Numbered from the stretch's first letter, positions 3,369 through 6,300 are shown. The stretch is 36,176 bases of DNA from Catajapyx aquilonaris (GCA_000934665.2 JYFJ02003939.1:1-36176); one strand, 5' to 3'. The notes: a model not told the origin generated them from the letters alone. Program-made: numbers and translations.

Positions 3369-6300
3369 CTGCATGAAAATGTCAAATTAGCTCGTTTCGT
3401 CAAGTCACAGTTTTCAAGACCCACCTTTAGGATTTGGAATGAGCACATGAGGGTCTCGTCCACAGACATCATGGCCCCAGCGTTGTCAAACTCCCCACAA
3501 TAGTTGGGGGCAGAGAATAGTGTCACTAGCTGACGCTTTGCAAAGAATTCGTAGCCGTCCTCTACGACCTGGAATATGCATGCCCTCATTATACACCTGG
3601 CCCAGTTGTAGCAAAGTTATCTTAAGAATAAACTCCCACCCATATTCTTTAAACTTTAAGAAAACAGCGTCAAAATGATATGGCAACGACCTAGCGTGCG
3701 TAAGCACCGGTTGTTATGGCCAAAAGTGCCATAATTTGCTATGCAGTTAACATCTCATAATTCCCCTGCAATGAAATATGAACTCTGCCTAGAACTTGCA
3801 AATATATTATTCAAGGCCATCTTCCACTAGCACAAGTGCAGACAGTTTTAAATATTCTGGACCGAGTTTGAAAAACAAGTCCAAGCGGAACACAAAATTC
3901 AATACTTGTAACATTAATTTTCCCGATTAGATGGCTGCCACGTGATGTGAGGCACACTTTAAAATGGTGCTAATTTATATTTACAATACTGACATGTGCA
4001 TACATATTCATTCCACACATCATTACAACTCTTCCCTAGGCAAATTCAGGTGCTTTGTGAATATTAAGTGGCCTTTGTCAGCCATCTGACAACCACAGAT
4101 TGTGGGTCAAGAATTCATCAATTGAACCATGGAATCAGAAAACAGGTTAAGTCAACTCCAAAAAAGACTTCGCACTTGCGCACTTGTTGCTCTAAGCCTC
4201 GCTGTACGCCAAACGGACCATCGCAGGAGCACCAAACTCGGGTGGTGGGTGAGTCTGGCGAATACAAGGTGTCATGAATCCGATACAAGTAATGAGTGAC
4301 GAATGGGAGCGGTGTCTTTGTGACGGGTTGCGGGTAAGAAAAACCAGTGCCGCATTTGACTTGTTTGTGCTATTGTGACACCGGGGATAGGTACGCATTC
4401 GCCGCAAGAAAAATACCATATTAGTTAGGTCCAGGTGCGACAATCACTCTGACCTGCAGAGGGGTCAACGTGGCCTCGAACTCGCATTGGAATCAGAAAA
4501 CAGGTTAAGTTCACGGGGGTCCCCTGAGGGTGGGGGGTCAAAGAAGCTCACTTCGTCACTCGTATCGGATTCGTGACACCTGGTATCATCATGAATTGGC
4601 CAGGCTCACCTATCACACGAGTTTGGGGCACCTGCGATGCTCCATTTGGCATACAGCAAGGCTCAGAGCAACAAGTGCATAAGTGCTAAATCATTTTGGA
4701 GTCGACTTAACCCGTTTCCCTATTCCATGGTTCAATTGTTAATAGGTCTGAAATTACACTATGCAAAATCACCTCCAGTTCAGACATAGAACCTGCACAA
4801 TCCCCTGCCCCCAAAAGTACCAGTAGAAACAGGCCTTCAAAGTTAAAATATTGAGCCTTTCTGCAATGCCATTAAAATCTTGCTTCATGAAACTCAAAAT
4901 ATTAATCCCATTTTCACGTTTAATACTTCAGAAGCTTTTATTTACTTTCAATTTAATTAACTTGAAAGGCTGCACTATTACAAATCCATTCACCACATTT
5001 AAACCAATACATACACACTATGCATGCTTTTCCCCCCTCAGATATGATTCACAATTAATCAAATTTTGAATTTTAAAACAAGCCACATTCAAATAATACT
5101 CAAGAATTCTGCAGTAATTTGGCTCATGACTAATTTGAAAATTTTAACTTTTCATATTACAAACATTTCCACAAACAGCATGCCTGCCAACAATTACCAT
5201 ACACTACACCACAAAAAACAAAGCTATCTCAAACTACAACTGGAACTTATTTTCCACAATTTTTTTTAACAATTAAAATTTGTAGCGCCCATCCACATGG
5301 ACAGACTTGATTGCCCCTACCTGGTGTGCTCTACAAATCAAATCCATGTCATGTTTGTGAAGGAACTTGGCCACAACTTCTGCTCCGAATGTATAACTTA
5401 CACCTCTGTCGTTCTCACCCCAGCCCATTGTATCCTGTAGTTTTAGAGAATTGGAAGAAGAAGAATGCATTTCAAGGAACACGTTACAGGTACAGGTTTG
5501 TCATGGGCGCCACACTCCCCCCTAACCAATGTTGTCACAGCCCTTGCTAAATCTAGCTTATGCCAGCAACAGTGACCAAACACAAGGATGACTTCCCAGT
5601 TCATGCGTGTGTCTGGCACTCCATGCCAGCTACTGGGGAGGGTCAAGTAAAAGGCTTGGCAGTCTTGGGAAGGCAACTTGCTGCCTACCTGATGCGCTCG
5701 GCAAATCAGGTCAAAGTCATGCTTATGCAGAAATTTCGCCACAACCTCTGCCCCAAAAGTGAAGGACACGCCTCGATCGTTCTCACCCCAACCCATCGTG
5801 TCCTGGGAGGAGGGAAAAATGTCATCAGACAGGTGTGAGATAACAAGTGGCAAGGATTAGGGATATGGGATTCCGGGTGTATGGGTGTATGGCGGTGGAA
5901 CAAATAAGAGAAAAAAACACTGTCAGAGCATGACTCTATCGGTGCGACACACCATTCTTGTCACTTTCTTTTTTCTTTCTCTTGCAACACATGGCATGTG
6001 CCCTTGAGTCCACCAATCAGGAGCAGCTGCTTTGACGTCTCATCATTACCATCACTATTGTGTGTCACTGTTTGCCACCTGATTATTGTTGCTCACAGGC
6101 ACATCAAAACAATAATATATTCTATGCCGCCATATGGGAGGCATGCAAATGCACATTTTAGAGGACAAACAACTTACACTGCAAAATTGATGGAGTGGCT
6201 ATATATGCACACAGTAATTTTTTTAAAAAGTTTTAGTTAAAAGCATTTTAGTTAAAGCATTTCAGTTTATAAATTGACTTTTCATGAAACAATCCAGCCC

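Follow-up and report, generated by a model that had tools for sequence, protein, structure and literature searches.

A tandem pair of homologous exons was recognized in a gene for the catalytic subunit of protein phosphatase 1 (PP1) on a 36,176-nucleotide stretch of DNA from Catajapyx aquilonaris (GCA_000934665.2 JYFJ02003939.1:1-36176), which is considered here at its full length and termed the window. The two exons, named 5a and 5b, are very probably a real, expressed and mutually exclusive pair, through which one PP1 gene would give rise to two catalytic subunits differing solely at two residues, F225Y and F241M. In the proposed scheme, an ancestral exon 5, carrying R221, H248, D242 and L243, would have been duplicated in tandem, with one copy chosen for each transcript. 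Each copy is used between exon 4 and exon 6 in the spliced contigs of relatives, and the tandem arrangement is found on one contig in one of these relatives; we infer that the same splicing takes place in the organism of the window.

Both exons comprise 114 nt and lie between an upstream AG and a downstream GT, the donors being CAG/GTAGGC in 5a and CAG/GTAGGG in 5b; equal length, equal phase, homology, adjacency and canonical splice sites, the hallmarks of a mutually exclusive pair, are all found here. The copies differ at 30 of 114 nucleotides (26%), and their flanks differ too. Of the 38 codon pairs, 12 match exactly, 24 show synonymous differences, a TCC/AGT serine switch among them, and 2 change the amino acid, which leaves two peptides with 36 of 38 residues in common and with F/Y at exon position 14 (F225Y) and F/M at exon position 30 (F241M). 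The reciprocal matches of each exon peptide to both sites of the window (tblastn, E ~1e-22) exclude a chance likeness, and no third copy of exon 5 was detected in the 36-kb window (tblastn, E<1). The Nei-Gojobori comparison of the copies yielded a dN of 0.057 and a synonymous proportion above 0.75, which is saturated, with 15 of 38 third positions identical. When the two variable codons were masked, the identity between 5a and 5b was 0.76, which does not exceed that of either copy to exon 5 of distant animals (group means 0.77-0.82). The 5a peptide is identical to the lone exon 5 of other arthropod-like loci.

The numbering of the segment is determined by the 633 coding nucleotides (211 codons) that precede exon 5, which place it in phase 0-0 and at residues 212-249; exon 5 falls on the same residues when aligned with the full-length PP1-alpha of the PDB (1fjm_A), which indicates that the labels F225/Y225, F241/M241, R221 and H248 are correct. 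An earlier interpretation of this DNA, drawn from its letters alone and referred to as the sequence-only reading, had described two 114-nt phase 0-0 exons for residues 212-249 that lie 254 nt apart between canonical splice sites, and every part of this description was borne out by the sequence and the gene model; its count of two residue differences and 24 synonymous codons, with the TCC/AGT serine among them, was exact on recount, and its placement of R221 and H248 in the segment agrees with the 1fjm_A alignment. R221 (exon position 10), which we take to be the phosphate-binding residue, and H248 (exon position 37), presumably a metal ligand, are present in both copies. Residue 225 is located four positions after R221, and residue 241 adjoins D242 and L243, which the sequence-only reading had put at the border of the RVxF-docking groove and which are counted as part of it in the relevant portions of PMC9582199 and PMC3387161.

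The use of each copy was traced in Logan contigs. A run search with positions 5300-5820 returned six public runs, and four of them (X1, X2, X5 and X6, derived from four studies) were aligned to positions 3000-10300 at 85% likeness. The sources are one invertebrate metatranscriptome and three coded organisms, and the RNA data represent relatives that are ~10% diverged from the window in the constitutive exons. The joints with CT..AC ends between constitutive exons indicate that the runs contain spliced cDNA, and the counts below, taken from the loose ends and pieces listed, are to be read as lower bounds. The connection from exon 4 to 5b was revealed by loose ends at 5436 that read as the end of exon 4 in X1, X2 and X5 (at least three of four runs), and that from 5b to exon 6 by the joint 3566/5319 in X1 together with a loose end reading VVEDGYEFF before 5319 in X6 (at least two of four). 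For 5a, loose ends at 5804 lead to exon 4 and loose ends at 5687 lead to exon 6, both in X5 and X6 (at least two of four in either case). Exon 5b is contained in contigs of all four runs, with 1-3 of 113-118 nt different from the window, and its presence in X1, X2, X5 and X6, along with that of 5a in X5 and X6, demonstrates that both exons are conserved in other species. Among the joints listed for the four runs, neither a 5a-5b joint (5434/5689) nor an exon 4-exon 6 joint occurs, contigs being prone to drop rare forms. The mutually exclusive use proposed by the sequence-only reading is supported by the contigs of relatives. In X1 and X2, 5a is without cover among the pieces listed, which is not evidence of its absence. 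An X2 contig at exon 6 carries an exon with HDLDLVCRAH, probably derived from another PP1 gene.

The contigs also bear on the physical arrangement of the pair. In X5, the 26 letters of exon 4 attached to 5a are identical to those attached to 5b, and in X6 the same holds for the 24 letters of exon 6. In addition, one X5 contig (depth 7) connects the 3' portion of 5a and the initial bases of the following intron with at least 46 bases that precede 5b (joint 5487/5671), the middle being unalignable, which is what a pre-mRNA or a DNA fragment of the tandem pair would be expected to look like in that organism.

The cross-species comparison revealed a strong conservation of both copies at the nucleotide level. 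The twin exons differ from the window at 1 of 118 bases in X1, 2 of 118 in X5 and 4 of 236 in X6 (0.8-1.7%), whereas the constitutive coding exons differ at 77 of 743, 80 of 724 and 14 of 147 bases, respectively (9.5-11%; Fisher p 2e-4 to 7e-4). The last 40-50 nt before 5b are alignable in the relatives as well, in contrast with the remainder of the intron (X5 joint 5487/5671, X6 piece 5407-5475). Since the divergence between the copies is saturated and each is nearly identical across species, the duplication appears to be much older than the split among the relatives. Both copies appear, from these patterns of substitution, to be under selection and to carry a constraint at the RNA level; the earlier proposal of an old duplicate with two copies under purifying selection is in agreement with the dN, the saturated synonymous sites and the low divergence in relatives. 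A tree of the 114-nt exon, in which 5b was grouped with F/M exons, was discarded as a means of dating, for which it has no power: the grouping did not survive the masking of the two variable codons (supports 0.28-0.45).

Three other explanations were weighed. Two paralogous PP1 genes in the relatives, with one exon form each, could account for both kinds of contig, in which case the tandem pair of the window would undergo no alternative splicing and would contain a silent copy. PP1 paralogs are common in animals, the twin-exon contigs, short at 118-151 nt, stop close to the borders of the exons, and the RNA comes from relatives alone, all of which can be counted in its favor. The identical flanking letters on 5a and 5b, the X5 contig running from the end of 5a through the intron to the bases before 5b, and the tandem layout in the window itself argue against it, as does the fact that both copies in the window have intact frames and AG/GT sites and are almost identical to the forms expressed in the relatives, and such an origin of the contigs is regarded as very improbable. 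It is scarcely credible, and even less probable than paralogs, that 5b represents a decaying or unused duplicate, or that the duplication is an assembly artefact. A pseudo-exon would be in keeping with the interrupted polypyrimidine tract before 5b and with the absence of the Y/M form from the protein-cluster representatives listed and the metagenome loci, but 5b is retained in spliced contigs of every run at 1-3 of 113-118 nt from the window, its frame is intact and the dN of 0.057 is low; a collapsed or duplicated assembly of one exon is contradicted by copies that differ at 26% of their bases and by differing flanks.

The third and more probable of these explanations is that both exons are used and the two isoforms are biochemically equivalent, the pair persisting because of a role in regulation or at the level of the RNA, for instance in dosage or in the tissue-specific control of splicing. 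It is a possible outcome, albeit an unlikely one. Only two changes, both conservative, separate the isoforms; L, F and M at position 241, like F and Y at position 225, are each found elsewhere as sole forms, and the strongest constraint lies on synonymous sites, which points to a function of the RNA. On the other hand, both copies have a dN/dS well under 1, every relative aligned retains the two differences, and residue 241 adjoins the groove residues D242 and L243 (in the portions of PMC9582199 and PMC3387161 named above). Given that other PP1 exons have the residues concerned as their only form, the difference between the proteins may be a subtle one, and the isoforms probably differ subtly, if at all; a difference in the binding of partners or inhibitors, as conceived in the sequence-only reading, is plausible in view of the location of the two sites, which are adjacent to the RVxF groove and to the phosphate site.

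The mutually exclusive pair remains the preferred explanation, and the points that weigh against it concern the RNA, the substitutions, the distribution in other animals and the predicted RNA structure. The transcript evidence consists of contigs of relatives rather than RNA of the window's own species, all four runs being ~10% off in the constitutive exons; contigs, unlike reads, give no isoform ratios, and rare forms that contain both exons or skip them may drop out. The X1 joint 3566/5319 has just 30 letters on its short side, at 85% likeness. Moreover, the runs were retrieved through 31-mers of the twin-exon region, which introduces a bias toward organisms with conserved twin exons, although this bias does not easily explain why both exons in X6, and 5b in three organisms, are almost identical to those of the window. 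As to the substitutions, both are conservative, and each is found in nature as the only form of some other PP1 exon.

As to the distribution, a degenerate exon pattern applied to metagenome contigs collected 104 exon 5 loci of the PP1-alpha type, with FL in 77, FF in 21 and FM in 6 at residues 225/241; a Y-type exon, Y/M included, was present in none of the 104, and none contained a second copy of the C-terminal motif of the exon. The sequence-only reading had pointed to the PP1 loci of other arthropods as a place to look for the exon peptide. Twelve hand-picked F/F and F/M genomic loci were examined by tblastn for a second exon copy, and in 11 of these arthropod-like loci one exon 5 is located between exons 4 and 6 and the pair is absent. 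In these 11, the peptides of exons 4, 5 and 6 are 97-100% identical to those of the window, and exon 5 is separated from exon 6 by 70-1737 nt; the twelfth locus (L022) is without exon 6. The lone exon 5 of these loci indicates that the pair is not general in arthropods and is either lineage-restricted or repeatedly lost, a choice for which the sequence of a 114-nt exon would hold no power.

In the protein database, the best 120 of 4541 matches contained 123 motif matches in 117 proteins (FF 63, FL 50, FM 9 and YL 1), and the best 120 of 169 matches in a nearer search contained FF 55, FL 48, YL 4, FM 4 and YF 1, with 8 showing no pattern match. The Y/M form was encountered in none of the 240 protein-cluster representatives listed, a weak negative since clustering at 90% identity would hide an isoform, and further weakened because Logan contigs of exon 5 are too short for gene calls. 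The PP1 transcript of Talitrus saltator (PMC5068443, supplement file 10, among the 12 of 32 supplement files searched) is of the F/F form. Multi-copy protein matches in sturgeon, rotifer, moth and apple were considered as candidates for an exon pair and rejected, being in reality fused or partly repeated models of larger segments.

Several features of other PP1 loci were also recorded. A single exon 5 with F225/M241, intermediate between the forms of 5a and 5b, is found in PP1-alpha-type genes at the metagenome loci L003, L016, L025, L036, L052 and L073 and in the protein P0063; L003 and L036 lack the intron that would separate exons 4 and 5, which are fused there. In the PP1-beta models of two moths, P0009 (Phthorimaea operculella) and P0044 (Operophtera brumata), the C-terminal half of exon 5 is partially repeated, which could be a partial exon duplication or an artefact of annotation or assembly.

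How the choice between 5a and 5b might be enforced was considered in terms of the known mechanisms. Since both exons are 114 nt in length, a multiple of 3, double inclusion and skipping would stay in frame, and nonsense-mediated decay (NMD) cannot be in charge of exclusion. Steric hindrance is rendered unlikely by an intron of 254 nt with an ordinary 3' end, in which a pyrimidine tract occupies the last ~45 nt and plausible branch sites are nearby, though a distant branch point may be used. U12-type donors conform to the consensus RTATCCTT; the donors of exons 4, 5a and 5b read GTAGGG, GTAGGC and GTAGGG, and as all are of the U2-type GTAGG, an incompatibility between U2 and U12 splicing is unlikely. 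As to base pairing between introns, the best duplexes, computed on the window sequence only, reach -28 to -29 kcal/mol; in 20 mononucleotide shuffles the best duplexes had medians between -27 and -30 and minima between -34 and -44, and the fold of the whole 596-nt region (z -0.61) is no better than that of shuffled sequences. A hairpin enclosing the donor of 5b, whose arms form the listed inverted pair I23, is predicted at -24.6 kcal/mol (z -3.03, with 1 of 200 shuffles as good), and it is one of four segments tested and without comparative support. The statement of the sequence-only reading that including both copies or neither stays in frame therefore stands, while the active exclusion mechanism it had called for met with searches that were negative or weak.

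A tentative proposal, which we would put at somewhat less than an even chance, is that splicing regulators would enforce exclusion by reading cis-elements located within the twin exons and in the sequence close to them; it is suggested by the near-frozen synonymous sites, the conserved 40-50 nt before 5b and the possible hairpin at the donor of 5b. A competing RNA pairing, undetected here, would be an alternative and is judged less likely than that. A bolder interpretation, which is speculative and ranks well below both, holds that this lineage might diversify the PP1 core by exon choice instead of by paralogs, that the exons might embed an exclusion code so far undescribed, and that the derived enzyme with Y225/M241, rather than the sequence regarded as canonical in arthropods, could be a major form. 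It is prompted by synonymous sites whose conservation in three relatives is roughly six times that of the synonymous sites in the constitutive exons, and by steric, U2/U12, NMD and docking/selector explanations that do not appear to fit.

PP1 is among the most conserved eukaryotic enzymes, and regulatory subunits docking at the RVxF groove are generally credited with almost all of its specificity. Tandem mutually exclusive exons are known as a kind, and what appears to be new is their occurrence in PP1, a family where they are unexpected. The PP1 pair resembles the tandem exon clusters of the arthropod genes Dscam1, Mhc, 14-3-3 zeta and N-cadherin in that the exons are homologous, equal in length and phase and adjacent in one intron; they encode the same structural segment, one exon is apparently taken into each transcript, and an old duplication is followed by purifying selection on the copies. 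Such arthropod clusters are treated in the portions of PMC3228551, PMC2257972, PMC2655722, PMC3535345 and PMC9741552 devoted to them. Unlike these clusters, the PP1 pair belongs to a gene family new to this kind of exon and offers just two variants with two amino-acid differences, and a duplex search of the window introns gave no pairing of docking sites and selectors above chance.

Alpha-tropomyosin exons 2 and 3 exclude each other sterically through a distant branch point, and pairs of the JNK type do so through U2/U12 incompatibility. The PP1 exons share with both the organization as a two-exon mutually exclusive pair with a short intron (254 nt in PP1), but they differ in having an ordinary pyrimidine tract, nearby branch sites and U2-type donors, which indicate neither mechanism. 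The diversity of PP1 is otherwise ascribed to paralogs, namely alpha, beta and gamma in vertebrates and 87B, 96A, 13C and flw in Drosophila, and to the C-terminal splicing that distinguishes gamma1 from gamma2. Paralogs and tail splicing, like the exon pair, provide an organism with several near-identical catalytic subunits; the pair is distinct from them in that one gene suffices and in that the varied residues, 225 and 241, are part of the catalytic core and not of the N- or C-terminal tail.

The literature searched yielded no account of a mutually exclusive exon pair in PP1, in line with the sequence-only reading, to which none was known, although genome annotations may already list such an isoform. 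The terms "PPP1C" and "phosphatase" are absent from the main text and one supplement of the tandem-exon survey PMC9741552, and "phosphatase" is absent from the main text of the Kassiopeia paper PMC3923563. The exon switch at 241 and 225 constitutes a natural experiment on whether the PP1 core itself is tuned for different partners, and it affords a clean two-exon in-frame case for the study of exclusion where NMD, steric and U12 explanations fail. If the isoforms should turn out to be equivalent, the pair would still illustrate well how strongly alternative exons can be constrained at the level of the RNA.

The minus strand of the window harbors the complete coding part of this PP1-alpha-type serine/threonine phosphatase gene, which comprises 328 codons in seven coding exon positions with GT-AG ends at all introns; the model was obtained by locating conserved peptides and then reading the splice sites off the sequence. 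Its membership in PP1 is evident from GDIHG, GDYVDRG and RGNHE in the frames of exons 2 and 3, which we take to be the catalytic motifs GDxHG, GDxVDRG and GNHE. The closest solved structures are PP1-gamma and PP1-alpha (72 bits, E 3e-20), PP2A scoring 27 bits. PF00149 (Metallophos) of Pfam matches exons 3, 4, 5a (E 1.1e-5) and 5b (E 4.1e-6), all Pfam matches being above the curated cut-offs, and Rfam had no match in the window. The coordinates are compiled in the table.

Coordinates of the PP1 gene in the window, in gene order along the minus strand
Feature	Position	Strand	Description
PP1 coding exon 1	9955..10009	-	ATG at 10009; 18 aa + 1 nt; donor GTAAAA; joint 8135/9955 (CT..AC ends) in X1, X5
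PP1 coding exon 2	8004..8135	-	STPPase_N, Pfam PF16891, E 1.3e-18; spliced joints in X1, X5
PP1 coding exon 3	7416..7646	-	GDIHG, GDYVDRG and GNHE motifs; Pfam Metallophos, E 8e-18
PP1 coding exon 4	7032..7246	-	Ends LLWSDPDK, phase 0; donor GTAGGG; Pfam Metallophos; last 24-30 nt seen as loose ends on 5a and 5b
Exon 5a	5689..5802	-	Residues 212-249, F225/F241; first of the pair in gene order; X6 contig 5687-5804, cover in X5
Intron 5a-5b	5435..5688	-	254 nt; U2-type GTAGGC donor; pyrimidine-rich 3' end
Exon 5b	5321..5434	-	Residues 212-249, Y225/M241; contigs 5319-5436 (X1, X5, X6) and 5324-5436 (X2)
Candidate hairpin around 5b 5' splice site	5265..5345	-	Single-sequence prediction
PP1 coding exon 6	3425..3568	-	VVEDGYEFF...SFQILK; joints in X1, X5, X6
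PP1 last coding exon (7)	3273..3368	-	Ends NKNKKK; stop TGA 3273-3275; joint 3368/3425 in X1, X5, X6

The intron between 5b and exon 6 accommodates a large inverted repeat at 4119-4738 with serial arms of 45 nt (89%), 111 nt (82%) and 34 nt (85%), which is similar in appearance to a miniature inverted-repeat transposable element (MITE) or a foldback element. Contigs of X1 match the outer arm at 4120-4157 and then run into unrelated sequence, so that the repeat is probably dispersed.

Elsewhere in the window, a multi-exon neurofibromin gene (NF1, RasGAP) occupies ~16100-34100 on the plus strand, head-to-head with the PP1 gene. Its exon at 26875-27342 has the best named match in Petrolisthes cinctipes (91% identity), insects being next at no more than 87%, and a Gly/Ser-rich, low-complexity, coding-like stretch is situated at 29805-30164. 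Perfect microsatellites were noted at 11837-11965, where (TTA)27 is directly followed by (CTT)15.7. The region 700-1600 is GC- and proline-rich, and either strand contains long open frames there, one of them spanning 1044-1601 of the minus strand (185 aa); the sole N of the window lies at ~13200 in a GC-rich region, where it appears as an X in the open-reading-frame (ORF) translations at 12866-13474.

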